A DNA stretch of 16,489 nt from Candidatus Heimdallarchaeota archaeon (GCA_020353515.1 CP070695.1:3092354-3108842), one strand, 5' to 3'. Shown: positions 1-15,003, counted from the first letter of the stretch. Notes: generated from the letters alone by a model not told the origin. A program made the numbers and translations.

Positions 1-159
1 ACGTGGCGAGCGGAGAAATTGCGACGACAGTAAGTATTATAGCTCCCATAGCTAATAAACTTGGACTAGGAGCAACTGGCCTGCTGGTGGAGTGGCAAAA
101 CCTTTATGTCCGAAGGACAATAATGGTTTTAGGGATGGGACTTAAGGCGAGGGAAAGGC
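1..159 (+). repeat. Intergenic structured repeat R0 (left end cut by window edge)
   Basis: Contains core GGAGTGGCAAAACCTTTATGTCCGAAGGACAATAATGGTTTTAGGGATGGGACTTAAGGCGAGG (89-152), shared with R3, R4, R7, R8, R9, R10 and R11. Confidence 0.9.
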
Positions 160-166
160 GATTGAT

Positions 167-484
167 ATGGAATTTAGACCTTGTGGTGCACAGGTTCTTA
201 TTATAATATTTATTTTCTCTATTATCTTAACAATTTTAATAAATTATTTCTATAGAACGGACCTGAAACTTTGGTTACTGATTGGATTGGGATTAGGAAT
301 AATAGGTGGAGTTATATCAACAATATCTTTTATTGCTTTAAATGAACAAATGTGGATTGAAGATGGATCAGAATGTCCCCCAATCAATTTGGGTTTATTC
401 CTCCCAATACTTATTATTCCAACAATTATTCTTATTTTATTCGAGATACTTATTCTTCAAATGAAGAAGAAAAATAAGATATAA
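167..484 (+). CDS. Small hypothetical membrane protein (about 3 TM helices)
   Basis: 105 aa ORF with three hydrophobic stretches and a basic C-terminus; fills the space between R0 and R1. Confidence 0.75.
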   Translation: MEFRPCGAQVLIIIFIFSIILTILINYFYRTDLKLWLLIGLGLGIIGGVISTISFIALNEQMWIEDGSECPPINLGLFLPILIIPTIILILFEILILQMKKKNKI

Positions 485-489
485 GTAGA

Positions 490-785
490 GCCTTTCCCTC
501 GCCCGCTCCGAGCAGAGGGGCAGGGCCCAGCGCAGGAGCGAAATGGTATGGGGAGGTAGGATGCCTCGCTCGGAGTTGCAGGGAAGGCCGTTTGCACGAC
601 GAGTTAGAGGTGGCACCTATAAGAGACGGAAAAACCTCCAATCGCATATTAGCGGGTACAATCTCTGATTGACGCTAGCGAATGTTCGCGGCGAGGTGGT
701 TGGCGAGGGAGTTTGAGCGATAATAATAAATTGTTGCAAAGCGATAAACGACTGAGCCAAGGTTGGGGCTTAAAGGTGAGGAGCA
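490..785 (+). repeat. Intergenic structured repeat R1 (long variant)
   Basis: Starts CCTCGCCCGCTCCGAGCAG and ends GGGGCTTAAAGGTGAGGAGC; 497-605 matches 1450-1558 at 107/109 nt; 755-783 matches 14975-15003 at 26/29 nt. Confidence 0.9.
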
Positions 786-828
786 CATAATTAAAAACAG
801 TGTAGCTATCTTAATATTAAATATTATA

Positions 829-865
829 GAAAGCTTTAAATAGCTAAAATAACTATAATAGTTAT
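829..865 (+). promoter_or_regulatory. Archaeal BRE/TATA promoter and palindromic operator of the TA operon
   Basis: GAAAGC followed by TTTAAATA (835-842) about 30 nt before the ATG at 872; perfect 8-bp inverted repeat ATAACTAT-A-ATAGTTAT (849-865). Confidence 0.65.
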
Positions 866-871
866 GATAAC

Positions 872-1099
872 ATGGGATATAAAACAATTAACGTTGCACC
901 GGAAACATATGAAAGGCTAATTCTATATAAACATGCAGGAATGACTTTCGACGAGGTAATAAATGAAATGATGGATATGATGTCGGAAGAAGAATTTTAT
1001 GAGCATGTAATAGAGGAACATAAAAAGCGCCTCAAGAAAATAAAAGCAGGAGAATATATAGAGGCAAAAGATCTTACCAAAGCCTTAGAAAAGGTTTGA
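872..1099 (+). CDS. Archaeal-type type II antitoxin (VapB/RHH-like N-terminus)
   Basis: KTINVAPETYERL...GMTFDEVINEMM resembles archaeal antitoxins; 75 aa; directly upstream of a RelE-like gene. Confidence 0.75.
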   Translation: MGYKTINVAPETYERLILYKHAGMTFDEVINEMMDMMSEEEFYEHVIEEHKKRLKKIKAGEYIEAKDLTKALEKV

Positions 1100-1108
1100 G
1101 GTGCTTGA

Positions 1109-1399
1109 TTGCCAAAATATCGAATTATTTACGGTAAGGATTTTCTAAAGGATCTTAAAAATATTGTTAAGAGCGGAGATAAAAACGTTATAAGTAAAGC
1201 TGAGCAAATTATAGAGAAATTAAAAATAGATCCACACAAAAAAAGATCCGGGGTAGATATTAAATTAATCTCTTCAAGAAAAGATGCAGTTTATCGAGTT
1301 CGAATCGGAAAATATCGTATGGTTTATGAAATAGATGAGGTTGAAAAGAAGATATTCCTTACTATGATATTTCCACGGGGAAGAGGACGAGGATATTAA
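1109..1399 (+). CDS. RelE/ParE family type II toxin
   Basis: 96 aa, basic; YRIIY..F.KDLK N-terminus and YRVRIGKYRMVYEID motif; TTG start after GAGGTG RBS. Confidence 0.88.
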   Translation: MPKYRIIYGKDFLKDLKNIVKSGDKNVISKAEQIIEKLKIDPHKKRSGVDIKLISSRKDAVYRVRIGKYRMVYEIDEVEKKIFLTMIFPRGRGRGY

Positions 1400-1445
1400 T
1401 AAAGGATTTTCCTGAGATTAATGCCACACTGTTGATTATTAGCTT

Positions 1446-1674
1446 TGCTCCTCGCCCGCTCCGAGCAGGGGGGCAGGGCCCAGCGCAGGAGCGAAATGGT
1501 ATGGGGAGGTCGGATGCCTCGCTCGGAGTTGCAGGGAAGGCCGTTTGCACGACGAGTTGCGATTGGCACAGCTCAGTGACGCTAAAAAGGAGCAATCGCA
1601 TGTGAGCGATAACATTTATCTATGACAAAGCGAATGTTCGGGACGAGGTCATCACTTAAAGGCGAGGCGGCTGG
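1446..1674 (+). repeat. Intergenic structured repeat R2
   Basis: Left 109 nt nearly identical to R1; right part (about 1599-1669) similar to the end of R6 (about 4968-5038); ends CTTAAAGGCGAGG. Confidence 0.9.
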
Positions 1675-1703
1675 ATCTTATAGCTTAAGAGTAAGAAGTT
1701 AAA

Positions 1704-2240: not shown

Positions 2241-2329
2241 GGGATGGCTTCAGCGCAGGATGGAGTGGCAAAACCTTTATGTCCTAAGGACAATAATGGT
2301 TTTAGGGATGGGGCTTAAAGGCGAGGAGC
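2213..2329 (+). repeat. Intergenic structured repeat R3 (short variant)
   Basis: 2228-2326 is identical over 99 nt to 5537-5635. Confidence 0.95.
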
Positions 2330-2493
2330 GATATCAACAAAGGCTGTTGTGCCCAATTCAATGTGCATTATTTCATAACTCTAATTGACGATATTTTTAC
2401 GATCGTGCCAAAAAAGATATCTAATTGACTTACAATATATATTTCAAAAAGGGGTACAGGGCTCAATTTAAGGTTAAATAGGTAGCGATAAAT

Positions 2494-3483
2494 ATGAAAG
2501 GATTAAAAATATTCACAGTTGTTATTGTGATAGTATTATTGACTATCACCAGTTGGTATTTTTTCGGACGAGAAACAATTAAAACCGAAGATAACAACAA
2601 TGATTCTACACTTGTTGGGTTAAGTTTTACCGTCGAAGAATATCCAAAAGTCGATGGATCTACATCCACACACCCATTAGAGGTAATCATAGCATGTAGA
2701 TTGCTAAATATATCATATCATGAAACAATTTGGTATGATGGAACAAGACGCATTGTACCGAATGCCTCAGAACCAGGAAAAGAATACATTGCTGAGAATA
2801 TTACAGCGAACATAATCCATCATGGGACACATGACGCGTATGTGAACCTAATTAATGGTACAACCGATTTGATATTAGTTGCTAGATTACCTTCAGAAGA
2901 TGAACTTGCGCTTGCTGATGGAAGAAGTGTGGAACTTGAAGCAAAGCCAATTGCTCTGGATGCTTTTGTATTTATTTTGAATGAAAAGAATCAAATATAC
3001 AATCTAACAATAGAACAGATCCAAGGGATTTATACAGGTGCGATTACCAATTGGAGTGAAGTTGGAGGAAATTATACAGATATCAATCCATATCAAAGAG
3101 ATGAAAATTCTGGAAGCCAGGAACTAATGAAAAGGTTAGTAATGAAAGATTTAGAACTGATCGATTCACCTGATTTGGTCCTATATGGGATGATGGGACC
3201 TATAAATAGATTGAACTGGGATGAAAATGGAATTGGGTATACAGTTTATTACTTCGAAGAATTTATGGCACCCAATGATCATATTAAATTAATCGGAATA
3301 AACGGCTATTATCCAGATTATGAGAATATAAAAACAAAAAAATATCCATTTACGACTGAAGTATATGTAGTAATAAGAAAGGATCTTGATAAAGATAGCA
3401 ATGCATATAAACTCAGAGACTGGCTTCTTTCAGAAGAAGGACAAAGCGTAATTGAAGAAAGTGGTTATGTTCCCGTAAAATAA
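2494..3483 (+). CDS. PstS-like phosphate ABC transporter substrate-binding protein (PBP family), membrane anchored
   Basis: N-terminal TM anchor; DGSTSTHPL, GTHDAY, IALDAFVF, YQRDENSGSQELM and LSEEGQSVIEESGYV motifs. Confidence 0.85.
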   Translation: MKGLKIFTVVIVIVLLTITSWYFFGRETIKTEDNNNDSTLVGLSFTVEEYPKVDGSTSTHPLEVIIACRLLNISYHETIWYDGTRRIVPNASEPGKEYIAENITANIIHHGTHDAYVNLINGTTDLILVARLPSEDELALADGRSVELEAKPIALDAFVFILNEKNQIYNLTIEQIQGIYTGAITNWSEVGGNYTDINPYQRDENSGSQELMKRLVMKDLELIDSPDLVLYGMMGPINRLNWDENGIGYTVYYFEEFMAPNDHIKLIGINGYYPDYENIKTKKYPFTTEVYVVIRKDLDKDSNAYKLRDWLLSEEGQSVIEESGYVPVK

Positions 3484-3507
3484 ACCACCGTTATTGAATT
3501 TAAGCAT

Positions 3508-3662
3508 TCCGAGCAGCTTGGGAATGGCCATTCTCGGATTCCAAAGGAATTTGAGAATTAAGATGACGAGCAAAGCGAGACATCGCTAGCGCAGGACGGA
3601 GTGACAAAACCTTTATGTTCGAAGGACAATAATGGTTTCAGGGTTGGGGCTTGAGGAGGCGA
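3508..3662 (+). repeat. Intergenic structured repeat R4
   Basis: CCGAGCAG start, hairpin modules at 3531-3557 and 3562-3584, the AAAACC/GGTTT core hairpin, and a GGGGCTTGAGGAGGCG end; similar to R8. Confidence 0.9.
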
Positions 3663-3713
3663 CCGCAAATAAAAAATAGATGAACATTAATATATATATA
3701 TTAGGAGGAACCC

Positions 3714-3977
3714 ATGAATTTCGAACCGGATGCTATTATACTACCGAGACTAATCCCTTGGATAGAAAAAAGCAAGCTCCGGATAGCAATATTTGATATT
3801 ATCTCAACCATTATTGGGATTATTTTAATTTACATATGGCTAAAACATTTTTTCATCCCAATCTATGCAGTAAGCTCGATTATTGGTCTTTTTTCAATTA
3901 TCTTGGCTTTAGTGCTTTTAAATGGGAACGAGGAAGATCTTAGCTTAGCCATAATTAAGGCCCCTTCCCACCCTTAG
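3714..3977 (+). CDS. Small hypothetical membrane protein (2 TM)
   Basis: AGGAGG RBS; two hydrophobic segments; stop TAG falls in the start of R5. Confidence 0.7.
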   Translation: MNFEPDAIILPRLIPWIEKSKLRIAIFDIISTIIGIILIYIWLKHFFIPIYAVSSIIGLFSIILALVLLNGNEEDLSLAIIKAPSHP

Positions 3978-4129
3978 CAGGTAGGGGAGTACCGATTGTG
4001 AAAGGCGAGGGCCCGTAGGCAAAAAAGTTACTTCCAGACCAATAGTATTTAATAGGAAAATCCTAGGTGTCTGTAGGTGATAACCAGCAAAACGCAGGAC
4101 GAGATCTTTACTTAAGGATGGCGAATTTC
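3973..4129 (+). repeat. Divergent repeat R5
   Basis: AGCAGGTAGGGGAGTACCGAT (compare R6), AAAGGCGAGG (4001-4010), then CGCAGGACG and CTTAAGGATGGCGA (4111-4124). Confidence 0.7.
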
Positions 4130-4153
4130 ATACAAATATAGGATTGGGACTGT

Positions 4154-4762
4154 ATGAAAAATAAAAAGAAATTGGGTAAAATTTTATTCGACTCTCATCC
4201 GAATAATCCCAAATTTATCTTGACATCGTTTGTATTGATTATTATAGGAGGATCATTGTATTGGTGGGCTGTGTATTTTTTTGACCCAATCATTTACTTT
4301 TTAGGGTTTTTATTAGCGGTTATTGGTACGATTATTCTTATTGTCAATGAATTTATCGGAGGGAAATTCAGATTTAAGATATATCAGGATGGCCTAAAAT
4401 TAGATGTGAATAAATTTGCTGAAGACCCAAGAACTAATCTCACCAGAGGAGAAAAAATTGGAAAAAGAAAAGTGAGATATAATGAAATAGAAAGCATTCA
4501 TCCTTACATGATTAAATCCGAAGTTAATAAGGATTCTATGGGATTACAAATAATATTACCAAAAGAAAAGAATTTTTTTATGGTTGGTGAAATAATATTA
4601 TATGGGAAAGGTATTAAAAGAATGCCAGAAGTAATTAATTATTTAAAGATAAGAATGGGACCATTATGGAAAGATAAATTCAAAAAAGATAAACCAATAT
4701 GGATCGGCGATTTAGATCCGAATAAAATTTCTATGTTTGTAGAATTAGGAGAAACTCCCTGA
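4154..4762 (+). CDS. Hypothetical membrane protein (2 N-terminal TM plus soluble domain)
   Basis: 202 aa ORF with two hydrophobic helices followed by a basic soluble region. Confidence 0.8.
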   Translation: MKNKKKLGKILFDSHPNNPKFILTSFVLIIIGGSLYWWAVYFFDPIIYFLGFLLAVIGTIILIVNEFIGGKFRFKIYQDGLKLDVNKFAEDPRTNLTRGEKIGKRKVRYNEIESIHPYMIKSEVNKDSMGLQIILPKEKNFFMVGEIILYGKGIKRMPEVINYLKIRMGPLWKDKFKKDKPIWIGDLDPNKISMFVELGETP

Positions 4763-4792
4763 TATGAACTAACGAAATTCACGCGACCTGGC

Positions 4793-5038
4793 ACGAGCAG
4801 GTAGTGGAGTACCGATAGTACAGGGTCCATTTTCGGATTTCGAAGAAATTTGAAAACTAAGAGGGCAAGTGAAGCAAGTCCTCGAAGGCGGATTGCAGGA
4901 ATTTCGGTCCCACATCATAGGAAATTCGTGCAAGAGGAGGAAACTTGCTTTCCTCCGAAGGAAATTCCATATGAGCGACAACATTTATTTATGACAAAGC
5001 CAATGCTCAGGACGAGGTTATCACTTAAAGACGAAGCG
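4793..5038 (+). repeat. Intergenic structured repeat R6 (long mosaic variant)
   Basis: CGAGCAGGTAG start; hairpins at 4830-4856 and 4861-4883 are homologous to those in R4/R8; right end is homologous to R2. Confidence 0.85.
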
Positions 5039-5061
5039 AAACCTGAAAAGGAGGTATTCAA

Positions 5062-5493
5062 TTGGATGAAAATATTGTTGGACAAATAACTAAAGCCTAT
5101 ACGACAGCAAAACCCGAATATTTTCGGATCTTTATATCGGCGCAAGATATAATAATCGTGAGTTATGGTGCTTTCACTGGCCATAGTATTGAAGCAATAG
5201 CAATTCAAATGTATAAAGCACGAAAGACTAAACAAAAAGTCGACCAGTTGTTAACACGACAAGATATCTTTCAAAATTTTCCAAATGCACTAGTTCTATC
5301 AAGGAACGATCTACAGCAAATACGATTGAAAAAACAACTTACCGATGCCTTAATTGAATTTGAATTACCACCTTCAAAGGGATTCTTGGGTAAAAAAAGG
5401 AACATTAAAAAGTACGGATTTCCCAAGAATGAATATGAGGACGTAAAAGGAATATTTTCGATCTATTATAACAACATATTATCGGTCAAATGA
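5062..5493 (+). CDS. Hypothetical protein
   Basis: 143 aa; TTG start after GGAGGT RBS; fills the space between R6 and R7. Confidence 0.75.
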   Translation: MDENIVGQITKAYTTAKPEYFRIFISAQDIIIVSYGAFTGHSIEAIAIQMYKARKTKQKVDQLLTRQDIFQNFPNALVLSRNDLQQIRLKKQLTDALIEFELPPSKGFLGKKRNIKKYGFPKNEYEDVKGIFSIYYNNILSVK

Positions 5494-5522
5494 ATTCAAT
5501 TATAAATGTCCAATATAAGAGT

Positions 5523-5638
5523 TGCTCCTCGCCCGCTCCGAGCAGGTAGGGGATGGCTTCAGCGCAGGATGGAGTGGCAAAACCTTTATGTCCTAAGGAC
5601 AATAATGGTTTTAGGGATGGGGCTTAAAGGCGAGGCGA
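5523..5638 (+). repeat. Intergenic structured repeat R7 (short variant)
   Basis: GCTCCTCGCCCGCTCCGAGCAGG...CTTAAAGGCGAGG; 99 nt identical to R3. Confidence 0.95.
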
Positions 5639-5652
5639 TATAAGTAAAGGGG

Positions 5653-6099
5653 TTGGTTGATGATATGCCAAAAGGAGCTTTCGGACAATATATTATAAAA
5701 AATCAGACTGTAGGATCTTTTACCCCATTATACGAGCGCATATTATTTGAATGTAGATTCATAACAAAAGAAAGAACATGGGACGGACAAATCGCTCGTC
5801 ATAAGGCAATGTTCGGTAGTAAAGGCTCATCATTCGCTGTCTCAGCATTTGTCCCCTTCGGCTCATTACTTGAAGAAGGAAATCGATATGGCGCTGAGGC
5901 CGAAATGTATCAGTATGGCCCAGATGTAATCTTGAGGCTTCTTGTGGTTCCTTACATGACATTATTCGATGCCCACGATTATTTTTTATTAACCCAAGGT
6001 GTTTTTGAAAAGATTCTAGACGATGAACGTTGCATGAAGAAATTAGGGGAAATTGTTTACAGGATCATGGCATATAGGGTGCAAATATATACATTTTAA
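5653..6099 (+). CDS. Hypothetical protein
   Basis: 148 aa ORF between R7 and R8; the true start may be the ATG at 5665. Confidence 0.7.
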   Translation: MVDDMPKGAFGQYIIKNQTVGSFTPLYERILFECRFITKERTWDGQIARHKAMFGSKGSSFAVSAFVPFGSLLEEGNRYGAEAEMYQYGPDVILRLLVVPYMTLFDAHDYFLLTQGVFEKILDDERCMKKLGEIVYRIMAYRVQIYTF

Positions 6100-6139
6100 A
6101 AAATATATGGATTATCCATCAACCCCAATAATTATTTGA

Positions 6140-6306
6140 GCTTCGCCCAGTCCAAGTAGGTAGGGGATAACCATTCTCGGATTCCAAAGGAATTTGAGAT
6201 TTAAGATGACGAGCAAAGCGAGACATCGTAAGCGAGGTACGGAGTGGCAAAACCTTTATGTTCGAAGGACAATAATGGTATAAGGGATGGGACTTAAGGA
6301 GGCGAC
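6140..6306 (+). repeat. Intergenic structured repeat R8
   Basis: Same module order as R4 (TTCTCGGATTCC hairpin, GATGACGAGCAAAGCGAGACATC, core hairpin); ends CTTAAGGAGGCG. Confidence 0.9.
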
Positions 6307-6377
6307 TTCTGAATATAAGTGAGGCTGGAGGTAAGAATATCAACGAAGATGGAGACCACTCTACAATCAACAATCAT

Positions 6378-8297
6378 TTGATAAAGAATCATAAGAAGCG
6401 CTATTCAAAGAAGGTTCTGGCTATCGTTCTAGTGAGCATCATTTTGATTGGAGTGATTGTTGGATTTGGCTACTTTAGAAATTTTTTTATAGAAAAGGCA
6501 GAAGTTCCGGTGTGGGAAGTAGGAGATGCTTGGATTTACAATAGCTCATATCAAGGTGACTTAAGCAAGGGGAGTGATATTGGTATTTTCGTTAGAGAAA
6601 TAACTACATATAAAGACCAAAAATTCTATCAAATATGGGGCCACCTTTATCCAATGTTTGATAAAAGTTGGGTATCTGCAGACGATCTCAATCCTATAAA
6701 ATTGGAGGATTTTGAAAATGGCACCTTTTCTGAGACCGATAAACCCTTTAATTTTCCTCTTTACAAGGGCAAAAAATGGGATTTCACAACCCAAAATAAT
6801 CATACTTACAGGTACATTGTCGAATCACAAGGAGATATAAAGGTTCTTGGTGGCACCTTCAATTCATTTAAAATTCGTAAGACTGAAGGAAATAAAACGA
6901 AGTCGATTACATATTTTTCTCCTAAGGTACGAAACATAGTAAAAATGATCATTTATAATGATGATCCAGATGATTATTATATATACCAATTCAAATCCTT
7001 TTATAACGAACCATTCGAAAGATTGATAGATACACAAAAATTGGATAATAGATACAATGCAACACTTGAGATATGGGAAGAAAAATACTCACCTGTCCAT
7101 GATTGGGTGATAAAATATAGGGTGTCCTATACAAAAAACGGCCAGAATTTTACAGCACGCTTCGATGAGACCACAAAATTTTGTTTGGATTGGATAAAAA
7201 ACAATACAAATGAAGAGGATAAAATCCTCTGTTGGTGGGATTATGGACATGAGATTCAGGGTTATACAGGAAGAGAAGTGGTAATTGACGGACCCAGTGC
7301 CAGATTATGGGATACAATTATGGAACCGTGGACAATCAAAAATTGGAATAAAGAAAGTGATGTTGTAAATGTTTCAAGAGCTTTGGTGGGGACACCAGAA
7401 GACACCATTGAAGTGATGAATCAATATAATGCAACTTTATTATATATTAAAAGCAGAGAACTGGCATTATCTGCACGGGATACAGGTATTTTTTATTCAC
7501 TTGTTAAAGGAGCAAAAAGAAACCTTGATGATTATTATGAAGTTTTTGTGTTTACATCTTCTGGAGATAAGATCAATGTAAACCAGGTAAAGGATTTTCA
7601 ATCCATAACAATAGTTAGTTATGAAATAGAATTTAAAAAGGCCTATTACGACTCGATGATATGTAAAGCAAGATTCGGATACTCCGGTGATGATATCTCA
7701 CCTAATGGGGACCTAGATGGACTTCCTGCCTTATCAGAGGATCTTTATCATTATCCAATTAAGCCATGCTGGAACTTGACAAACTTCAAGGTGATCTTTA
7801 GGACTGCCATGTGGAATCCTTATCCCTTAGAAGATTATGAAAACCACTCTGAAGGTTGGCAACCAATGGAGTATCTAGATGCAATTGATAAGAAAAACTC
7901 GAAAGAAGGTATCTCAGACCTTAGTGATAGGTTCAATCTCAACTCAGGGAATATAATGTTGAGATATTTTGATGGGGCAATACTAAAGGGTAAGATCCTT
8001 TATGAGAATAGCACCTCTGCAGAGGGAGTTAACATTACTGTCACTGATGAATATGGTGTTCCTCATAAAATAAATCAAACAGATGGTTATGGTAACTACT
8101 CTTTAATTGTACCCTTTGGTAATATTACAATCACTATTTCCGAGGGGGAAATGGACAGAATGACCTTAATCGGGGATACGCTGTTGGAAACGAACTTGAC
8201 TGTTGAATTATACCAGGCAACAAGGGAAGAGGTCGATCTCGATAAGGATGGCCATTTTGATTACTATATTTTTAAGGACTTCGAAATATCCACTTAA
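6378..8297 (+). CDS. Membrane-anchored protein containing an AglB/STT3 C-terminal-like domain and a carboxypeptidase-regulatory-like beta domain
   Basis: Single N-terminal TM; WIKNNT...ILCWWDYGHEI motif; C-terminal GVNITVTDEYGVPH...TDGYGNYSLIVPFG; lacks the multi-TM STT3 region; TTG start uncertain. Confidence 0.75.
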   Translation: MIKNHKKRYSKKVLAIVLVSIILIGVIVGFGYFRNFFIEKAEVPVWEVGDAWIYNSSYQGDLSKGSDIGIFVREITTYKDQKFYQIWGHLYPMFDKSWVSADDLNPIKLEDFENGTFSETDKPFNFPLYKGKKWDFTTQNNHTYRYIVESQGDIKVLGGTFNSFKIRKTEGNKTKSITYFSPKVRNIVKMIIYNDDPDDYYIYQFKSFYNEPFERLIDTQKLDNRYNATLEIWEEKYSPVHDWVIKYRVSYTKNGQNFTARFDETTKFCLDWIKNNTNEEDKILCWWDYGHEIQGYTGREVVIDGPSARLWDTIMEPWTIKNWNKESDVVNVSRALVGTPEDTIEVMNQYNATLLYIKSRELALSARDTGIFYSLVKGAKRNLDDYYEVFVFTSSGDKINVNQVKDFQSITIVSYEIEFKKAYYDSMICKARFGYSGDDISPNGDLDGLPALSEDLYHYPIKPCWNLTNFKVIFRTAMWNPYPLEDYENHSEGWQPMEYLDAIDKKNSKEGISDLSDRFNLNSGNIMLRYFDGAILKGKILYENSTSAEGVNITVTDEYGVPHKINQTDGYGNYSLIVPFGNITITISEGEMDRMTLIGDTLLETNLTVELYQATREEVDLDKDGHFDYYIFKDFEIST

Positions 8298-8327
8298 TGA
8301 AAAATTGGTAGAGTAGTCTACTACGTG

Positions 8328-8418
8328 CCGAGTAGAAGAGGGATGGCTTCGGCGCAGGATGGGTGGGAAAACCTTTATGTCCGAAGGACGATAATGGTTT
8401 TAAGGGATGGGACATAAG
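8328..8418 (+). repeat. Degenerate repeat R9
   Basis: CCGAGTAG...GGATGGCTTCGGCGCAGGATGG...AAAACCTTTATGTCCGAAGGACGATAATGGTTTT...GGGATGGGAC; terminal GGCGAGG is missing. Confidence 0.85.
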
Positions 8419-8450
8419 AACCAGTGTACCAAGAAAAAGAGGTTATGTTT

Positions 8451-8879
8451 ATGGAAAAATTGAAAGCTGAATTGGTGGCGCCTTGTGGTATGAATTGTGG
8501 TTTATGTTCAGGTTATCTGGCTTTATCTAGGGGATTGGAGAAAAAGCGTGGGATCACACATTGTAAAGGATGTCGTCCACGTGGTAAGATGTGTGCATTT
8601 GTGAAAAAAAGATGTGAGAAAGTAAGAAAAAACCAGGTGGAATTCTGCTTTGAATGCAAGGAATTTCCATGTGAATCAATTACAAAGCTGGATAAACGCT
8701 ATCAGAAGAATTACAATTACAGTTTCATTGAAAATCTCAAGTATATAAAAGAACATGGAATACAGGATTTTTTAGAAATGGAAGAAAAAAAATACAAATG
8801 CAAGAATTGTGGTGACATCAAGTGTATCCACAATGGCAAATGTTACAGTTGCCAAACGATCACCACATGGCGAGGATAA
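8451..8879 (+). CDS. DUF3795-like Cys-rich (putative Fe-S/Zn) protein
   Basis: APCGMNCGLC, CKGCR, FCFECKEFPC motifs; GAGGT RBS favours the ATG at 8451 over the GTG at 8424. Confidence 0.82.
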   Translation: MEKLKAELVAPCGMNCGLCSGYLALSRGLEKKRGITHCKGCRPRGKMCAFVKKRCEKVRKNQVEFCFECKEFPCESITKLDKRYQKNYNYSFIENLKYIKEHGIQDFLEMEEKKYKCKNCGDIKCIHNGKCYSCQTITTWRG

Positions 8880-8955
8880 ACATAAATGGATTATAGTCAG
8901 TTTACTTAAAAAAAAGCGGTGAACGGAAATCAAAAAAGGCTGGAGGTATGAAAAT

Positions 8956-9606
8956 ATGGAAATCGTTTTACACAACTCAATAAGTCTAGATGGTTCATTA
9001 ACCCACTTTGATATTGATATGGGTCAACATTATCAAATAGCTGGTGAATATAAAGCGGATGCGAACCTGATAGGCTCAAATACTATTAAAACAGGTGTTG
9101 AGCTTTATGGTGAAGCACCACCAGAGGAAAGCAATGATTTTAAGAAACCTGAAAGAGATAAAAATCTTCCTAATTGGGTAATAATCGATACAAAAGGAAT
9201 TCTACAGGGATTGCTACATGAAGTCAGAAGATTTGAATTTTGTAAAGATGTTATCATCCTGATATCACGAGAAACTCCTGAACAGTACATTAAATATTTA
9301 ACGGAGAGGAATTATGATTATCATGTTGTTGGTAACAAAAAAGTTGACATCGAAAAAGCACTTGATCTTCTCTCGGAAAAATATGATGTAAGTTCAATAT
9401 TGGTTGATACAGGCAGCACATTGGGAAACATCTTATTAAAGAAAAGATTGGTAACAAAGATCAGTATTTTAGTGCATCCAATTATTGTTGGCAGTAAATC
9501 ACATAATATGTTTAGGAATATCGATGCAAATATAAAATTAAAATTATTAAGTAGCAAAACATTGGGTGATAATAATATCCTGTTAGTGTATGAACCAATT
9601 TACTAG
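8956..9606 (+). CDS. RibD C-terminal / dihydrofolate reductase family protein
   Basis: HNSISLDG, D.NLIGSNT, VIIDTKG, ILVDTGSTL and HPIIVG motifs; GGAGGT RBS. Confidence 0.85.
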   Translation: MEIVLHNSISLDGSLTHFDIDMGQHYQIAGEYKADANLIGSNTIKTGVELYGEAPPEESNDFKKPERDKNLPNWVIIDTKGILQGLLHEVRRFEFCKDVIILISRETPEQYIKYLTERNYDYHVVGNKKVDIEKALDLLSEKYDVSSILVDTGSTLGNILLKKRLVTKISILVHPIIVGSKSHNMFRNIDANIKLKLLSSKTLGDNNILLVYEPIY

Positions 9607-9639
9607 TAAAGTGATTTAAGGCGGTAAGGGTGTAAATAT

Positions 9640-9834
9640 ATGAAATCCATACCTGAAGATATTGCCTTACAAATTTGTGAGCAGATTAGAGAGGAAAAGG
9701 GGGTTAGATTATTTAGCCAGTGTTGGGGATGTGTTAAATTCTCTAAAGGCGATGGAAAGAAAATGTGTTTTTATGATCCTCCTAATAATTGGGGATGCAA
9801 ACTTGTCAACAAGCAATATGATCGGCAATCCTGA
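9640..9834 (+). CDS. Small Cys-rich hypothetical protein
   Basis: 64 aa with CWGC plus three further Cys; co-oriented with the upstream genes. Confidence 0.6.
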   Translation: MKSIPEDIALQICEQIREEKGVRLFSQCWGCVKFSKGDGKKMCFYDPPNNWGCKLVNKQYDRQS

Positions 9835-9927
9835 ACCCCTGAGCCGCCTTTGATTTTGATTGCTATTACCGTTACAGTACATATTCTTTCATTTCGAACT
9901 TTGAAGCAAAGAAAAAAAAGTATATAA

Positions 9928-11442
9928 TTATGATGTCGCTTTTACACGCTCCTCATGTGCCATATTGGCCAATTTTTCGATTTCTTTTTTATCCAATTTG
10001 AGTCCTTCAGCCACTCTGCGGCCATATTCAGGGTCTGCCTTGAAAAAGAGGGCTGTCTGTCGAAGTTGTATACGCTTTTGTGCTCCACCTAGATGATCAA
10101 CGATATTACCTATTAGATTCTCGCGGTCCTGATCTGTCATCACATCACGATACAGATTCCCAGGTTGAACAAAATCATCGTTGGGATATGTATACGGAAA
10201 ACGATCCGCCTCTCCAGAAATTTCGAAAGGAGGCTCCTTTGCAGAAATGTCCGGTTCTGGGCCCCCGAAGCTGTTTGGCCAGAAATTTGGGCCTTTACCT
10301 CCACCAGTATCGGTACGCATAAATCCATCGCGTTGATAGCTCATCTCAGGTGCATTTTTAGGAGCATTTACCGGAATCAAGTGATAGTTCGGTCCAAGTC
10401 TATGGATATGGGTATCGTGATATGAAAAAAGACGAGCTTGTAACATCTTATCAGGTGAGGCGGCAATACCAGGTACCAGATTCCCCGGGCAGAATGCAGC
10501 CTGCTCAACCTCAGCAAAGTAATTCTCAGGGTTGCGGTTCAAAACCAGTTTGCCCACCTCGATCGGTGGATAGTCACCATGTGGCCAGACTTTTGTGATA
10601 TCAAAGATATCAAAACGGTAATCTTTAGCTTCCTCAGGTTTCATTATCTGCATCTGTAAGGTCCATGATGGGTAATCTCCCCGCTCGATGGCATCATAGA
10701 GATCCCTTGTGGCATGGTCTGGGTCTTTGCTGCGCATAATCGCTGCTTCCTGTCGAGTAAGATTTTTAATTCCCTGATCTGTCTTAAAATGATACTGCAC
10801 CCAAAAATATTCGCCTTTCTCGTTGTACCACTTAAAAGTGTGACTGCTATAGCCATTCATGTTTCGATACGTTGCTGGAATCCCACGATCGGAAAAGAGA
10901 ATGGTTACCTGGTGAATTGATTCAGGTGTCAGGGAAAGGAAATCCCAGAACATATCCGGATCCTTACAATTGGTAGCAGGGTTTCGCTTCTGTGTGTGTA
11001 TGAAGTCTGGAAATTTTAATGGATCGCGTATAAAGAAAACTGGTGTATTATTTCCGACAAAATCGTAGTTACCTTCTTCGGTATAGAACTTCACTGCAAA
11101 TCCTCGTGGATCACGCTCGGCATCAGCTGAACCCTTTTCTCCTCCCACGGTGGAGAAGCGGGCAAATACCTCGGTTCGTTTACCAACCTCAGAAAGGAAC
11201 TTGGCCTTGGTGTACTTTGTAACATCCGCGGTAACCTCAAAGTACCCATACGCACCGGCCCCCTTTGCGTGCACTACACGCTCAGGGATACGCTCACGAT
11301 CGAAATGACCTAACTTCTCCAGCAGATGAACATCCTGCATCAGAACAGGGCCTCGTTTCCCTGCAGTAAGGCTGTTCTGGTCATCACCAACTGGTATTCC
11401 AAAAGCTGTGGTTAATTTCTTTTTCTGTTTCTTATCGCTCAT
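9928..11442 (-). CDS. katA: Monofunctional heme catalase (small subunit)
   Basis: [15 protein letters not shown] active-site motif, [26 protein letters not shown] and the RLFSYHDTH heme-ligand motif; GGAGGT RBS on the - strand (11448-11453). Confidence 0.97.
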
Positions 11443-11501
11443 GTTAAACCTCCCACTTAAACTGGATTAAAATTTAGCTGATAAACCTAACTGACAAGTA
11501 G

Positions 11502-11516
11502 CATATAAATTTTTTT
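11502..11516 (-). promoter_or_regulatory. Putative BRE/TATA promoter of catalase
   Basis: Minus strand reads AAAAAAA-TTTATATG about 60 nt upstream of the catalase ATG. Confidence 0.5.
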
Positions 11517-11577
11517 GTGTTACCGCTTTGAGTAAATGTATTGAGTTTTCAAAAAACTCAAAAACCCTTTTTTCACC

Positions 11578-11640: not shown

Positions 11641-11681
11641 AAGCTTATTCCTTTATATCGAGAAGTGGGAGAGGATAATAA

Positions 11682-12362
11682 ATGACCAAATATCTCTTTA
11701 ATCAGAGTCTAGGAAAAACAGTTGATGCAGTCAACGAAGCCTATTTTTTTGGACGGGCCATTCCAAAATCAGAAAAGGTTAATGTAGCAAAATGGATTGC
11801 GAATCGTCAAGGATTACCAAATTCATATGCAAATATGTTTGCACCAACTGAAAAAGATCTAAAAGAAGGTGTTGTTCTCTTTACTGGAGAAAAAATTGGA
11901 TCATATGTTGCAACTCGTCATATTCTTGGAGAAGAAGCTTGTCGAGCATTGATTCTTTTAGATGTTCATTCAGCTGAAGTAAATAAAGCACTAAAACAGG
12001 CAAGAGAAGGAATAGAACAAAAATTATCTGAACACTGGACTGAGGGAGTATATTGTTGTGGGAATTGTACAGTTGCTCTATGGCACCATTTAACTGTGGG
12101 TGGGCTTGAATATTCGGAAAACTTTATTGATCTAGGAATAAAAGCTCTGAAAAAACATCGAGATGGCAAAGGAAGATGGAGACGCTTTCCTTTCTATTAT
12201 ACTCTTCTGGTATTAAATGATCTTGAAGATAAGTATGCTGACGAGGAAATTCATTATGCGTCAAAAGGATGTGAAAGATTATTAAATAGAAAAACAAAAG
12301 AAGATAATATTTCAAAACGGCGTAAGGTTTTGCTTCAAAAAGTTCTAGAAAAAATAGAATAA
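11682..12362 (+). CDS. Hypothetical protein
   Basis: 226 aa; GAGAGG RBS; YCCGNC and DGKGRWRRFPFYYTL motifs; function not recognised. Confidence 0.8.
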   Translation: MTKYLFNQSLGKTVDAVNEAYFFGRAIPKSEKVNVAKWIANRQGLPNSYANMFAPTEKDLKEGVVLFTGEKIGSYVATRHILGEEACRALILLDVHSAEVNKALKQAREGIEQKLSEHWTEGVYCCGNCTVALWHHLTVGGLEYSENFIDLGIKALKKHRDGKGRWRRFPFYYTLLVLNDLEDKYADEEIHYASKGCERLLNRKTKEDNISKRRKVLLQKVLEKIE

Positions 12363-12462
12363 TTAATTGAATAGATAAGAAGGCTATATGCCCTATTCGA
12401 ATATATAATATTAAAAAGAAGAACTAGTAGTTGTAAACTTATGAAAACGAGAAGATGAATAA

Positions 12463-13257
12463 ATGAAAGTAAGCAAGTGTTTCAAACGCAAAATTCTTAA
12501 TCCTTGCAATTTAGAGATGTACAATTATCAAATGGATCCGTATATCGGTTGTGAACATTTTTGCAATTATTGTTACGCATTAAACGAAGCGGAAACAGAT
12601 TGGGAAAAAGAAATAATGATTCATGAGGAGTTTATTGAACGATTGTCTCAAGCGTTATCTAAAATAGAACCTCAGACCATCTATATAGGAGTGGATACCG
12701 ATCCATACCAGCCATCCGAGAGTTCCTTTAAACAGACCGGAAAATTATTGGAATTATTCGAAAAAAGAGGTTTCTCAGTCTGTATTCTAACCAAATCGGG
12801 ATTGGTAACAAGAGATATTGATCTTTATACAAAAATGCCGGCTTCCTCTGTGGGAATTTCAATCGCCTTTCAAAATGAACAAACTCGGAATCTGTTTGAA
12901 AAAAGCGCACCCCCGAACAAGGAAAGAATAGAAGCTCTTGAAAAATTGAAAAAAGTAGGTATCGACACTTATACTTTGATTTCCCCTGTAATGCCTTTCA
13001 TTACCGATGTAGAATCACTGATTGAAGCCGTGGTACCATTCTCAAACACCATTTGGATTTATAGACTTCAAATTGAATCAGAGGAATCACCAAACTGGTA
13101 TAATATTCAATCCATTTTAAATAGGCATTTTCCAGATTTAACGGAACAGTATCGTGAGATAGCATTTTCAGAGGATCATCCTTTTTGGTTGGAATTAAGA
13201 CAACAGCTAAAAGAAATTCAAAGTAAAAAGGATTTAAATTTGAAAATAGAATTATGA
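12463..13257 (+). CDS. Radical SAM protein, spore photoproduct lyase (SplB)-like family
   Basis: DPYIGCEHFCNYCYA (CxxxCxxC), TDPYQPSE and LTKS motifs. Confidence 0.9.
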   Translation: MKVSKCFKRKILNPCNLEMYNYQMDPYIGCEHFCNYCYALNEAETDWEKEIMIHEEFIERLSQALSKIEPQTIYIGVDTDPYQPSESSFKQTGKLLELFEKRGFSVCILTKSGLVTRDIDLYTKMPASSVGISIAFQNEQTRNLFEKSAPPNKERIEALEKLKKVGIDTYTLISPVMPFITDVESLIEAVVPFSNTIWIYRLQIESEESPNWYNIQSILNRHFPDLTEQYREIAFSEDHPFWLELRQQLKEIQSKKDLNLKIEL

Positions 13258-13286
13258 TGATAAGAGAAGTGAGTCATCACTGGCAA

Positions 13287-13359
13287 AGGACGGAGTAGCA
13301 AAACCTTTATCCCCAAAGGACAATAATGATTTTTAGGGCGGGCTTTAAAGGCGAGGAGC
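13287..13359 (+). repeat. Partial/degenerate repeat R11
   Basis: AGGACGGAGTAGCAAAACCTTTATCCCCAAAGGACAATAATG...TTAAAGGCGAGGAGC. Confidence 0.85.
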
Positions 13360-13444
13360 TATAATAACAATGGTTGTTTGCCCGAATAGAATGTGCCTGA
13401 AAAAGGTTGGCGGTTAGATCTTCAGATAGAGGAGGACCATTAAA

Positions 13445-14257
13445 ATGCCTCCCGATAAAAGGAAAAATTCTGTTAATAAAATCAATGTTGAGCCGGATTT
13501 AATAAATAGTATTGGTATGAAATTTAAACTTATTCCTGCAGGAAGGTTTTTAATGGGACAAAAGGACATAGCCGAACCTGTACATGAAGTAAATATCACA
13601 AAGCCATATTATATGGGTATGTATCCTGTGACACAACATGAATGGGAAACGATAATGGACGATAACCCAAGTGATATCCAAAGAGAAGATTTTCCAGTTG
13701 TTAATATCTCTTGGTATGATTGTCAAGAATTCATACAGAAATTGAATGGGATAGAATTTAATCAGGAAAAGAAATCATACAAATATCGTCTTCCCACCGA
13801 AGCTGAATGGGAATATGCATGCAGAGCTGGAAGTAAATCTCTGTTCTATTTTGATCATAAAAAAGAAGATCAAGATGATTATATATGGCATTTTAAGAAC
13901 TCAGAAGTTACCCAGGAAGTATATACTGAAAAAGGAGTTCTTGAAAAAAAGTTGGTTAAAATTAAAAAGACAGGAAGAATGATCCATCCAGTTGGACAAC
14001 TAAAACCAAATAAATTTGGACTTTTCGATATGCACGGAAATGTATATGAGTGGTGTGAAGATTGGTATTGTGACTATGTCAAAGATAAATTAATTGATCC
14101 AATAGGGAGTCCAAAAGGTATTAAAGTCCGGAGCAAGATGTTTCGAGGAGGGAGTTGTATGAATTTTGCAGGATATGGTGCTTCGGCTCACAGAGATTCT
14201 CGTATACCAAGTTATCGAAGTGAAGTTGTTGGAGTTAGAATAGTGAGGGAATTATAG
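13445..14257 (+). CDS. Formylglycine-generating enzyme (SUMF1/FGE-sulfatase) domain protein
   Basis: IPAGRFLMG, YPVTQ, RLPTEAEWEYACRAG, NKFGLFDMHGNVYEW and RGGS motifs; GAGGAGG RBS. Confidence 0.92.
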   Translation: MPPDKRKNSVNKINVEPDLINSIGMKFKLIPAGRFLMGQKDIAEPVHEVNITKPYYMGMYPVTQHEWETIMDDNPSDIQREDFPVVNISWYDCQEFIQKLNGIEFNQEKKSYKYRLPTEAEWEYACRAGSKSLFYFDHKKEDQDDYIWHFKNSEVTQEVYTEKGVLEKKLVKIKKTGRMIHPVGQLKPNKFGLFDMHGNVYEWCEDWYCDYVKDKLIDPIGSPKGIKVRSKMFRGGSCMNFAGYGASAHRDSRIPSYRSEVVGVRIVREL

Positions 14258-14266
14258 AATATAAAG

Positions 14267-14402
14267 CGTTCCGAGCGTGTAGAGGAAGGCAATTCTTGGA
14301 TTCTGAGGGAAATTGAGAATTAAGATGATGAGCAAAGCGATTGCACAATAGGACGAAAGATTTAAAGAATATAAAATCATATTGAGGAAGACTGGGCCGA
14401 GG
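14267..14402 (+). repeat. Degenerate repeat R12
   Basis: CGTTCCGAGC start; ATTCTTGGATTCTGAGGGAAATTGAGAATTAAGATGATGAGCAAAGCGA is homologous to the R4/R8 modules; right end is poorly conserved. Confidence 0.75.
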
Positions 14403-14428
14403 TTAGAACTAATTTCGGGGAAAATAAT

Positions 14429-14941
14429 ATGAAAATAAGACAGGAACAAAAAAGTGACCACAAAAAAGTTTATGAGATCACCAAGCAAGCATTCGGTCAG
14501 GAGAATGAAAGCAAACTGATCGAAAAAATCAGAGTCGGTGGGTGCTTTGTTCCTGAGCTTTCATTGGTAGCTGAGTTAGATGATGAAATTGTGGGACATA
14601 TTCTCTTTTCTAAAATAAAGATAATTGGCGAAGATGAACACGAATCACTTGCCCTTGCTCCGATGGCCGTTGTTCCAAAACTTCAAAAACAGGGAATTGG
14701 AAGTGAATTGGTAAATACTGGACTCGAAATTGCAAAGAAACTTGGTTTTGATTCCGTCATCGTTGTGGGACACGAAGAATATTACCCAAGATTTGGATTT
14801 GAAAAGGCTTCGAAATGGGGTATAAAGTGCCCATTTGAGGTGCCGGATGAAGCATTTATGGCAATTGAACTCGTTGAGAATTCTTTGAAAGGTAAGGGAG
14901 GAACTGTTCAGTATCCCAAAGAGTTTATGGAAGCTGAATAG
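14429..14941 (+). CDS. GNAT N-acetyltransferase (YhbS-like)
   Basis: IVGHILFS, LAPMAVVPKLQKQGIGSEL and VVGHEEYYPRFGF motifs. Confidence 0.93.
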   Translation: MKIRQEQKSDHKKVYEITKQAFGQENESKLIEKIRVGGCFVPELSLVAELDDEIVGHILFSKIKIIGEDEHESLALAPMAVVPKLQKQGIGSELVNTGLEIAKKLGFDSVIVVGHEEYYPRFGFEKASKWGIKCPFEVPDEAFMAIELVENSLKGKGGTVQYPKEFMEAE

Positions 14942-14974
14942 AACAGGGCATGGATATCATTGAATGGAGCGTTT

Positions 14975-15003
14975 AGCCAAGGCTAGGGCTTGAAGGTGAG
15001 GAG
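14975..15003 (+). repeat. Remnant repeat R13 (right end only)
   Basis: AGCCAAGGCTAGGGCTTGAAGGTGAGGAG; 26/29 identical to the end of R1. Confidence 0.75.

Follow-up and report, generated by a model that had tools for sequence, protein, structure and literature searches.

Known cassette systems and intergenic repeats

Integrons are, to our knowledge, the only well-understood platform for stockpiling and reshuffling single genes. Their circular cassettes integrate by a crossover within the recombination site, and where cassettes and their sites come from has long been an open question. Modular intergenic repeats of another kind include the BOX elements of pneumococci and the MITEs (review: PMC3184786). 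In bacteria, REP/BIME sequences are short, G+C-rich imperfect palindromes found at gene ends and in mosaic elements, and a small, often single-copy Y1 HUH gene, encoding the RAYT (TnpA-REP), adjoins copies of them (PMC2817692, PMC3116915, PMC6006769). The only Y1 proteins reported from archaea are of the IS200 type (PMC6006769).

The sequence examined here (the window) is 16,489 nt long and was filed under Candidatus Heimdallarchaeota. On balance, we lean towards the view that it is a chromosomal cassette array of an uncultured Thermoplasmata archaeon, one that follows the logic of integrons with other parts, moves its cassettes as circles and has a Y1 transposase as its candidate enzyme.

A co-oriented array of modular repeats

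The window is one entire contig between 100-N spacers, and the array is therefore cut at its upstream end. Placed between its ORFs are 14 repeat segments (R0 to R13), all on the + strand, which separate some 20 unrelated genes and exceed them in G+C and purine content. An array of this kind is far beyond chance. The + strand also holds 19 of the 20 main ORFs, the catalase gene being reversed. Five gene junctions have no repeat, and four copies are partial, with R10, R11 and R13 lacking the 5′ part and R12 the 3′ part. In the 4.94 Mb window assembly, neither a profile of the core module nor blastn with all 14 regions found a match off the window contig.

A composite repeat consists, in order, of a generic arm, a hairpin here named P1, optional hairpin modules, usually a second (core) hairpin, GGGGCTTAAA and the opposite arm. 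The generic arms are short, ..CCTCGCC at the 5′ side and GGCGAGG.. at the 3′ side. P1 is a conserved two-stem hairpin (CGNNCC-GAGCAG..GGG..variable tip..AGCGCA-GGN'N'CG-AAAGG), and the core hairpin is CAAAACC-T-TTAT..ATAA-T-GGTTTTG with a bulged A. The original prediction, made from the sequence alone, of about 14 repeats between co-oriented, unrelated genes in the layout of a cassette array is borne out, as are the conserved repeat ends that it quoted: CCGAGCAGG is a piece of the conserved hairpin on the 5′ side, and CTTAAAGGCGAGG (or CTTGAGGAGGCGA) is the closing element on the 3′ side. The interiors, described there as variable hairpins, are not free-form but a mosaic of a few common modules. 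The features of the window are as follows.

1–165, + strand: R0, cut by the contig start; core hairpin 94–134, 3′ end CTTAAGGCGAGG 141–152
153–503, + strand: cassette 1, 105-aa membrane ORF (167–484), enclosed by GGCGAGGGAAAGGC and a perfect reverse-complement copy
490–503, + strand: arm of R1, GCCTTTCCCTCGCC, the downstream arm of cassette 1
490–795, + strand: R1, long; P1 hairpin 504–540, E and F modules, 3′ end CTTAAAGGTGAGG 769–781
775–1456, + strand: cassette 2, antitoxin (872–1099) and ParE-type toxin (1109–1399), with a 34-nt cassette-specific inverted repeat
1440–1680, + strand: R2, long, R1 type; arm 1423–1456, P1 hairpin 1457–1493, 3′ end 1655–1667
1661–2224, + strand: cassette 3, 178-aa zinc-ribbon ORF (1704–2240), with a 33-nt inverted repeat
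2215–2335, + strand: R3, compact, its start overlapping the final codons of the 178-aa ORF; P1 2225–2266, core hairpin 2267–2307, 3′ end 2314–2326
2336–8317, + strand: cassettes 4–9, encoding a PBP-like protein of 329 aa and products of 87, 202, 143, 148 and 639 aa, the 148-aa cassette with its own 28-nt inverted repeat
3502–3665, + strand: R4, with hairpin module D inserted between the P1 strands (3505–3510/3598–3603); core 3603–3643, 3′ end CTTGAGGAGGCGA 3650–3662
3960–4125, + strand: R5, divergent; 5′ motif GCAGGTAGGGGA, linker GTACCGATTGT, 3′ end CTTAAGGATGGCGA
4785–5040, + strand: R6, long; 5′ motif, linker GTACCGATAGTA, D-like hairpin, F module, 3′ end CTTAAAGACGAAG
5514–5641, + strand: R7, compact, 96% identical to R3; arm GCTCCTCGCC, P1 5534–5575, core 5576–5616, 3′ end 5623–5635
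6140–6310, + strand: R8, R4 type (87% over 159 nt)
8318–8425, + strand: R9, compact, with a degenerate 3′ end
8424–11559, mixed strands: block without internal repeats; DUF3795 (8424–8879), RibD_C (8956–9606), 64-aa ORF (9640–9834) and catalase
9928–11442, − strand: catalase, 91% nucleotide identity to G083:C174
11560–11650, + strand: R10, 5′-truncated; core hairpin with compensated distal stem, and 3′ end
11682–14941, + strand: later cassettes; 226-aa ORF, radical SAM (12463–13257), FGE-sulfatase (13445–14257) and GNAT (14429–14941)
13248–13363, + strand: R11, 5′-truncated; core and 3′ end
14262–14352, + strand: R12, P1 with D hairpin alone; core and 3′ end absent
14960–15011, + strand: R13, 3′ end alone, 84% identical to the R1 end; the last repeat of the array
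15067–16489, + strand: region beyond R13; gene for a 272-aa membrane protein, and an alpha/beta hydrolase ORF truncated at the contig end

The anatomy of the repeats and the covariation of both hairpins are established. Every full repeat begins with a covarying P1, and most have the core hairpin. P1 is paired in 96% of cells, compared with 32–48% in slid controls, and has 14 double changes where shuffles have 3.0 ± 1.4; its strands pair better with their own partners than with shuffled ones. The core hairpin is 92.6% paired, with compensated distal pairs. One full element folds at z = −3.9, and the folding of single compact repeats does not surpass that of shuffles (z −0.4 to −1.6). The + strand folds slightly better, and this, with the G-U type pairs of P1, speaks for the sense strand. 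Breaks in the homology between repeats fall at several preferred points rather than at one, often after GGGGCTTA. Genes were also found inside repeats, and some junctions lack one. The window (E <= 1) and, at gathering scores, 80 kb of the arrays of a related genome, G085, were without any Rfam match.

Host lineage and related genomes

Judging from sequence comparisons, the contig probably comes from an uncultured Thermoplasmata archaeon and was mis-binned into an Asgard (Heimdallarchaeota) MAG. When a species-representative collection was searched, the core pattern was found in Thermoplasmata MAGs only, in four genomes that each have 9–38 blast matches to one repeat, in co-oriented clusters. 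The full-length G085 element is present in 5/6 species of that Thermoplasmata order. The repeat was found in 0/40 Heimdallarchaeia relatives, and one orphan cassette protein in 0/82. The earlier assignment to a probable archaeon holds, the most likely source being Thermoplasmata rather than the Asgard genome of filing.

Comparison of cassette order, proposed with the original prediction, returned the same cassettes in other orders and contexts in relatives. The window cassettes have homologues of 74–91% nucleotide identity in the Thermoplasmata order. A homologue of cassette 2 (81%) lies at the end of a G085 array, the GNAT gene has homologues of 80–87% in three other contexts, and the 272-aa membrane protein has homologues of 74–81% in G085 and G084 arrays. 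At the place in G083:C174 that is homologous to the truncated R10, a full repeat is present. Around a 32-kb array in G085 lie GatD, GlnA and GatE as well as HypA and HypD, so the arrays are chromosomal. Where genes within arrays are reversed, the repeats stay in the + orientation. The repeats of G118 are homologous to R1 and R2 and are likewise confined to co-oriented arrays. In G186, from another Thermoplasmata lineage, P1 is single and dispersed in both orientations between long ordinary genes, and is also found antisense to both neighbour genes. Sediment metagenomes hold the repeats at 10–50 times the depth of the genes.

Cassette-specific inverted repeats

For cassettes 1, 2, 3 and 8 of the window, arms of 14–34 nt are complementary within the same cassette (p = 0.0006 by permutation); complementarity between the two arms of one same repeat is at background in the window. 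The bracket of cassette 1 scores 28 against a background of 12.4 ± 2.7. Across 49 cassettes of seven arrays, the own partner ranked first in 11 and 0/20,000 permutations reached the observed sum; only about one-quarter to one-third of the cassettes have clear own-arm complementarity. A crossover inside the repeat, with a circular cassette integrating, predicts such bracketing, and these inverted repeats thus point to circular intermediates that recombine inside the repeat, from which we infer the position of the crossover. There is also variation in the population: in contigs from another study, 13258 is joined to 14335 and the FGE cassette is skipped. No excision or integration products were seen in the data, which are contigs and not reads.

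In the mechanism we favour, each intergenic repeat would be a composite site that can fold as a single strand. The cassette would at times be a circle that carries a single repeat with complementary arms of that cassette on either side, and a crossover inside that repeat would insert the circle into the array or remove a cassette from it. Each gene would end up bracketed by its own inverted repeat, with all repeats in one orientation, and a Y1 (HUH) transposase may act on the folded top strand. Homologous recombination between direct repeats would yield the same pattern. Since there are several break points, genes inside repeats and junctions without repeats, homologous or illegitimate recombination fits as well as a site-specific enzyme. 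The earlier claim of a distinct gene-capture system is upheld in part, by the reshuffled cassettes and their own inverted repeats, and weakened by the several module break points.

A candidate Y1 transposase

The leading candidate for the enzyme, as yet unproven, is an IS200/IS605-type Y1 (HUH) transposase encoded off this contig. Arrays of G083, G085 and G087 contain or adjoin genes for such proteins (Y1a/Y1b), and in distant Thermoplasmata arrays were found at 5/6 Y1 loci and at 0/12 control loci. Class-wide, P1 and Y1 co-occur (12/20 versus 20/181, odds ratio 12, p = 2e-6, with related genomes as non-independent samples). No Y1b homologue was found in 8/20 P1-bearing genomes, only about 5/45 metagenomic Y1 relatives have repeats nearby, and for the largest complete array, G085c, neither a Y1 nor another recombinase gene was found within 7 kb upstream or among the genes annotated over about 5 kb downstream. 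The link between Y1 and arrays is not universal, and arrays could simply be places where Y1 genes gather as insertion sequences or as cargo. A search for an HUH/Y1 partner, advised with the original prediction, found these genes enriched in or beside arrays in related genomes, and none on the window's contig or in its assembly.

The Y1 proteins have intact HUH and catalytic Tyr motifs. Those adjacent to arrays score 77–128 bits on the IS200 model (NF033573); assignment to the RAYT class (NF047646) was rejected, at 19–29 bits against a cut-off of 80. It is possible, though we hold it only tentatively, that single-stranded DNA is cut and resealed at the REP-like P1 by an IS200-derived Y1, in many cases an a/b pair, which would so move promoter-carrying cassettes as single-stranded circles into co-oriented arrays.

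Comparison with known systems and alternative explanations

As in integrons and CALINs, archaeal ones included (Ghaly et al. 2022, PMC9668308), co-oriented folded sites follow mostly single, co-oriented, unrelated accessory genes, the sites are similar within a lineage and the arrays are in chromosomes. P1 resembles attC in plan, having two stems, a spacer that is unpaired and a tip that varies, and a cassette begins with sequence complementary to a box that lies downstream of its own gene (here, arms GGCGAGG+ext / ext'+CCTCGCC). The own-cassette complementarity is 6–7 nt in integrons and 14–34 nt here, the better-folding strand here is the sense strand, and our candidate enzyme, an HUH Y1 transposase, takes the place of a tyrosine recombinase. 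That the window is an ordinary integron array (CALIN) with divergent attC sites, served in trans by an IntI encoded elsewhere in the genome, seems very improbable, even with its typical cargo (a toxin-antitoxin pair, GNAT and orphan ORFs) and the reported enrichment of CALINs in archaeal MAGs, Asgard above all (PMC9668308). As originally predicted, the repeats lack the boxes of attC: the sole RYYYAAC/GTTRRRY pair in the window is at the catalase start, and the paired boxes of the repeats are CGNNCC/GGN'N'CG. The sites are modular, 100–450 nt long, with extra conserved hairpins and conserved sequence well beyond any hairpin. No protein in the window assembly (G000) or in the related genomes G083–G086 exceeds the IntI cut-off (TIGR02249, 265 bits), the best matches skip model positions of about 180–232, which are the IntI-specific insert, and G085, with the largest arrays, has only a fragment of any tyrosine recombinase.

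Less remote, though still unlikely, is that the repeats are selfish hairpins of the REP/BIME or MITE kind, possibly spread by Y1, in a dispensable accessory region where genes turn over by ordinary homologous or illegitimate recombination. The module mosaic with its several break points, the partial copies, genes within repeats, terminal inverted arms, greater depth of the repeats in metagenomes and nearby Y1 genes, as in REP-RAYT systems, all suit this explanation, and the dispersed G186 hairpins behave as it expects. However, the window's lineage keeps almost all copies in a few arrays of strictly uniform orientation, with swappable genes between the copies, so that REP/MITE behaviour, raised at the outset as evidence against a cassette system, is seen in G186 and not in that lineage. 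The host is an archaeon, P1 has no GTAG/CGTC at its foot, where the preceding bases are CC(C) or variable, and the Y1 proteins fit the IS200 model rather than RAYT. The mosaic hairpin modules, inverted ends and non-coding, intergenic position also recall BOX elements and MITEs, but no target-site duplications were seen by eye, and the inverted repeats span gene-sized units rather than the element, contrary to what simple insertion of an element predicts. IS200/IS605 elements and the non-autonomous PATE (PMC5027513) share with the system here a transposase of the same NCBIfam equivalog (the Y1 of array neighbours in related genomes), strand-specific hairpins and insertion in one orientation, and tandem units of one orientation would be expected from a circular single-strand intermediate. 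Unlike in these elements, the Y1 genes here occur singly or as diverged a/b pairs rather than as near-identical multi-copies, no tnpB was noticed beside them, ordinary cellular genes are the passengers and the two hairpins of a repeat are dissimilar. Less likely than selfish hairpins is that the repeats are expression modules (transcript end or processing, promoter and leader) copied with genes and having no role in recombination; the invariant GCAAAACCTTTAT of the core would then act as a BRE/TATA promoter, the G-rich 3′ part would serve as a leader and P1 would fold as an RNA structure. Repeats lie 0–50 nt past stop codons and 15–110 nt ahead of gene starts, the space before several downstream genes is too short to hold a separate promoter, the GNAT homologue in G083:C233 begins 41 nt past AAACCTTTAT, and the strand preference of P1 is for the sense strand. 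Against this stand the lack of an Rfam family, the antisense position of P1 in G186 and the persistence of + oriented repeats by reversed genes, and the cassette-specific inverted repeats and array confinement are left unexplained. An expression role could hold alongside the cassette array that we favour.

Implications

An archaeal lineage has large chromosomal cassette arrays (>30 kb in one related genome) that keep the footprint of circular cassettes yet use neither attC boxes nor IntI, and standard tools are therefore expected to miss them. The window also illustrates how an accessory island filed as 'Asgard' may turn out to be a mis-binned contig. If the Y1/P1 system is confirmed, it would rank as the first REP/RAYT-like system of archaea and as the first cassette platform driven by an HUH enzyme, and gene capture in Thermoplasmata would have converged on the integron design with unrelated machinery. 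The short covarying hairpin found across Thermoplasmata orders, the cassette-specific arms and the candidate single-strand enzyme are testable handles. Some of the arms repeat the final stretch of a coding sequence, which hints at how cassettes are formed; in cassette 3, the downstream arm of the inverted repeat falls within the coding sequence.

Structure of the array

The window is one complete contig of 16,489 bp among the 114 that the assembly joins through 100-N spacers, and its array is therefore cut at the upstream end. The assembly neighbours of this contig are uninformative, and gene neighbourhoods across spacers are meaningless both here (G000) and in the 'chromosome' record of the related Thermoplasmata genome G085, because the contigs appear to have been strung together by size. 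Between the ORFs lie 14 repeat segments (R0 to R13), all on the plus strand (14/14), which is also the strand of 19 of the 20 main ORFs. The repeats exceed the genes in G+C and purine content. The cargo is functionally unrelated:

ParE-type toxin and antitoxin pair
PBP-like protein, DUF3795 protein and RibD_C protein
9928–11442, minus strand: catalase, the sole reversed gene
radical SAM enzyme, FGE-sulfatase-like protein and GNAT
several orphan ORFs

This confirms the cassette-array layout that the original prediction had read from the sequence. Its account of full repeats with variable hairpin interiors held in part: the repeats are real, but four of the copies are incomplete, repeats are missing at five gene junctions, and the interiors are mosaics built from a few common modules. 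Searches with a profile of the core (the second conserved hairpin of the repeat) and blastn with all repeat regions confined the repeats to this contig within the 4.94-Mb assembly. No tRNA or tmRNA was found in the window.

The catalase gene has a G+C content of 45–55%, above its surroundings. The 639-aa protein at 6378–8297, an odd and unexplained cargo, weakly matches an STT3/AglB core domain and a carboxypeptidase-regulatory-like domain. A 38-nt promoter-like element (AAGGCT.T..GCC...TAT.TATAATATTAAAAA) precedes two unrelated genes, at 12380–12417 and 15017–15054, both of which are junctions without a full repeat.

Origin of the contig

The estimated contamination of the assembly is 7.4%. 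The repeat was found in 0/40 Heimdallarchaeia relatives, and an orphan cassette protein in 0/82 genomes of that class. When one genome per prokaryote species was scanned for exact matches, the core pattern was returned only from four Thermoplasmata or Methanomassiliicoccales MAGs, and it was not found in viral contigs. Each of the four contains 9–38 blast matches to one window repeat, in strictly co-oriented clusters, and a full-length element from G085 was found in 5/6 species of the Thermoplasmata order. Whole window cassettes recur in this order with nucleotide identities of 74–91%.

Nucleotide identity of window cassettes to copies in the Thermoplasmata order
Catalase: 91% to the copy in contig G083:C174 of a second related genome, 86% to the G085 copy
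GNAT: 80–87%
Toxin-antitoxin pair: 81%
87-aa gene: 80%
64-aa gene: 86%
272-aa gene: 74–81%

We conclude that the contig is most likely from Thermoplasmata and very probably reached the Asgard assembly by mis-binning. The alternative is that it resides in an Asgard genome after a recent transfer. Tetranucleotide composition correlates with the Asgard assembly at r = 0.965 and with the G085 array at r = 0.982 and cannot separate the bins. Beyond the array, the 272-aa gene has only genus paralogues that are approximately 30% identical and thus gives no syntenic anchor, and as the first cassette protein has no record in the contig index, the contig is not extendable upstream. The 'probable archaeon' of the original prediction therefore survives as archaeal, but most likely not with the Asgard origin under which the contig is filed.

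Anatomy of the repeat

Full-length relatives of the repeat comprise, from 5' to 3', an outer arm GACAATCCCCTCC, the conserved hairpin P1, an inner arm GGACGCAGGCCTC, the core hairpin, a further hairpin and the two complementary arms. One such element folds with z = -3.9. The window variant is shorter, with arms ..CCTCGCC and GGCGAGG.., and single compact copies fold no better than shuffles. P1 has the form CGNNCC-GAGCAG(2-5 nt)GGG-variable tip-AGCGCA-GGN'N'CG-AAAGG. Among 23 copies of P1, drawn from five genomes, 96% of cells are paired (32–48% in slid controls), both sides change at the two middle pairs (UA, CG, GC, AU), and doubly changed cells number 14 versus 3.0 ± 1.4 in shuffles. The core hairpin, made up of CAAAACC, a T-T mismatch, TTAT/ATAA, a bulged A and a distal stem of 3–4 bp, is 92.6% paired, and its distal pairs are compensated. 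Wobble pairing and a small energy advantage favour the plus strand. By its sequence, the invariant 5' half of the core, GCAAAACCTTTAT, may be a BRE/TATA promoter of the archaeal type, and a GNAT homologue begins 41 nt past it.

Homology between repeats tends to stop after TTTTAGGG and GGGGCTTA and to start at AGCGCAGG. As there are several such end points, the repeats are mosaics. A census of the end points fixed no single crossover point, and no clean point emerged from the boundaries of the shared toxin-antitoxin, catalase, 87-aa and GNAT cassettes.

Cassette-specific inverted repeats

In four cassettes, the stretch after GGCGAGG on the upstream side of the gene is the reverse complement of the stretch before P1 on its downstream side:

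Cassette 1: 14 nt
Toxin-antitoxin cassette: 34 nt
Cassette 3: 33 nt, upstream arm at 1661–1690, downstream arm at 2192–2224 inside coding sequence
Cassette 8: 28 nt

Arms within a single repeat resemble each other only at background level, and permutation of partners gave p = 0.0006. Among 49 cassettes from seven arrays of three sources, with crude automatic junction calls, the cassette's own partner ranked first of 49 in 11 cases, and 0/20,000 permutations reached the observed sum. The downstream arm of cassette 3 lies within the last codons of its 178-aa ORF. The upstream arm thus resembles the end of the gene copied in inverse orientation, a possible clue to the origin of cassette arms.

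In integrons, the crossover is defined by a cassette start that is complementary to the cassette's own inverse core, and the arm complementarity in the window is of the same kind. Inverted repeats of this sort are what would remain after a circular cassette and the array cross over inside the repeat, and we infer circular intermediates and such a crossover. They are not what a repeat simply inserted between genes would be expected to leave. Homologous recombination between direct repeats, with loop-out and re-entry, would produce the pattern equally well and is a live alternative to a dedicated enzyme.

Mobility of the cassettes

Cassette orders and contexts differ between relatives, in keeping with the shuffling originally proposed. 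The distance between the 87-aa and 272-aa genes is 11 kb in the window and approximately 1.1 kb in G085. Upstream of the catalase cassette, the neighbour in G083 differs from that in the window, and in G085 the catalase gene is in a region nearly free of repeats. GNAT homologues, found in four unrelated contexts, have in common only the ORF and approximately 25 nt upstream. Contigs from another study include approximately 90% identical versions of several window cassettes, and contigs of run X3 connect the radical SAM gene's end with the GNAT leader (window 13258–14335), representing a relative without the FGE-sulfatase cassette. The metagenome contigs, which are short and unable to show circles or rare forms, include repeat-to-repeat joints and one cassette-less variant. 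Depth in sediment metagenomes was 10–50 times greater for repeats than for genes.

Relationship to integrons

No RYYYAAC..GTTRRRY pair is present at any repeat, as had been noted from the sequence, and Rfam families returned no match in the window (E ≤ 1) or in 80 kb of related arrays. P1 is like attC in plan, with two stems, a variable tip and an unpaired spacer in which some letters are conserved, but unlike it in sequence. Neither the assembly nor four related genomes encode a protein that reaches the IntI (integron integrase) model; the best matches were Xer-like and lacked the IntI insert. G085, which has the largest arrays, shows just a fragment of any tyrosine recombinase, and tyrosine recombinases do not adjoin the arrays. 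Its 32-kb array is in an uninterrupted stretch with GatD-GlnA-GatE-aminotransferase on one side and an fn3 protein and HypA-HypD on the other, and has no recombinase within 7 kb upstream or among the genes annotated within about 5 kb downstream. From this location among chromosomal genes, we conclude that the arrays are chromosomal and archaeal. Also set aside were the 170-aa ORF at the start of the G085 array, which is not conserved, and reverse-strand ORFs inside arrays, which are ordinary cargo (BNR, WD40, NosD, radical SAM).

A study of archaeal integrons relied on attC models and IntI for detection, and Thermoplasmata are absent from its main text (PMC9668308). With its repeat anatomy and covariation, own-cassette inverted repeats, reshuffled contexts and absence of integron parts, the window is a real non-attC cassette array that is integron-like in its working and very probably outside the integron family. 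The distinct capture system of the original prediction is supported in part.

A candidate enzyme

The leading candidate for the enzyme is an IS200-type HUH transposase (Y1), an assignment we make tentatively and would sooner expect to fail than to hold. In G083 contig C1, an adjacent pair of Y1 genes (139 and 163 aa) is found both inside an array and immediately upstream of it. Y1 genes are numerous in the Thermoplasmata order, and 12/17 matches in G083 are within 3 kb of repeats. The proteins match the IS200 equivalog rather than the model for REP-associated transposases (RAYT), and keep the HUH and Tyr motifs, with one partner degenerate.

Six distant Thermoplasmata loci were selected solely for holding a single Y1 homologue. 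Five of them have at least three direct intergenic repeats within 3 kb, while at the sixth the contig ends 0.9 kb past the gene; such repeats were found at 0/12 control loci of the same genomes. In 6/6 the array has Y1 at its upstream end, often in divergent orientation. Repeats in G118, another Thermoplasmata genome, are homologous to R1 and R2 across the P1 region and, except for three short matches on large contigs, are on small broken contigs. Class-wide, a strict P1 pattern was found in 20/201 genomes (three hits for the reversed control). A Y1 homologue is present in 12/20 P1-bearing and 20/181 other genomes (odds ratio 12, p = 2e-6, kin not being independent), and P1 is within 1.5 kb of a Y1 gene in five genomes.

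The Y1 genes could instead be insertion sequences or cargo that settled in arrays. Counting against a link, only approximately 5 of 45 metagenomic Y1 relatives have repeats nearby (loci found with the narrower protein alignment, the wider being too diverse), and the complete G085 array has no Y1 at its ends. The HUH/Y1 partner suggested originally is enriched in and near related arrays. No Y1-linked cassette arrays, or RAYT-like systems in archaea, were found described in the literature.

The Y1 pairs in G083 contig C1 (L079:1920–3261 and L078:14440–15787) are diverged partners, Y1a and Y1b, with a small ORF between them, and the pair unit, 1.45 kb long, is present in two copies that are 87% identical. 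The a-partner of G085 no longer has the HUH histidine or the Tyr region. Such degeneracy suggests that the partners may form heterodimers with one inactive subunit.

Dispersed P1 hairpins

In the Thermoplasmata genome G186, P1 hairpins are single, dispersed and in both orientations between long ordinary genes, which is REP-like behaviour. A survey of REP-RAYT systems reported none from archaea (PMC6006769), and the literature consulted does not describe REP-like behaviour of this kind in archaea. As P1 occurs singly in G186, it is a small unit able to live alone, and the arrays of the window lineage are an elaboration of it. The G186 hairpins are approximately 65 nt long and occur on several contigs of this small genome (L168–L171), and their inner stems are richly covarying.
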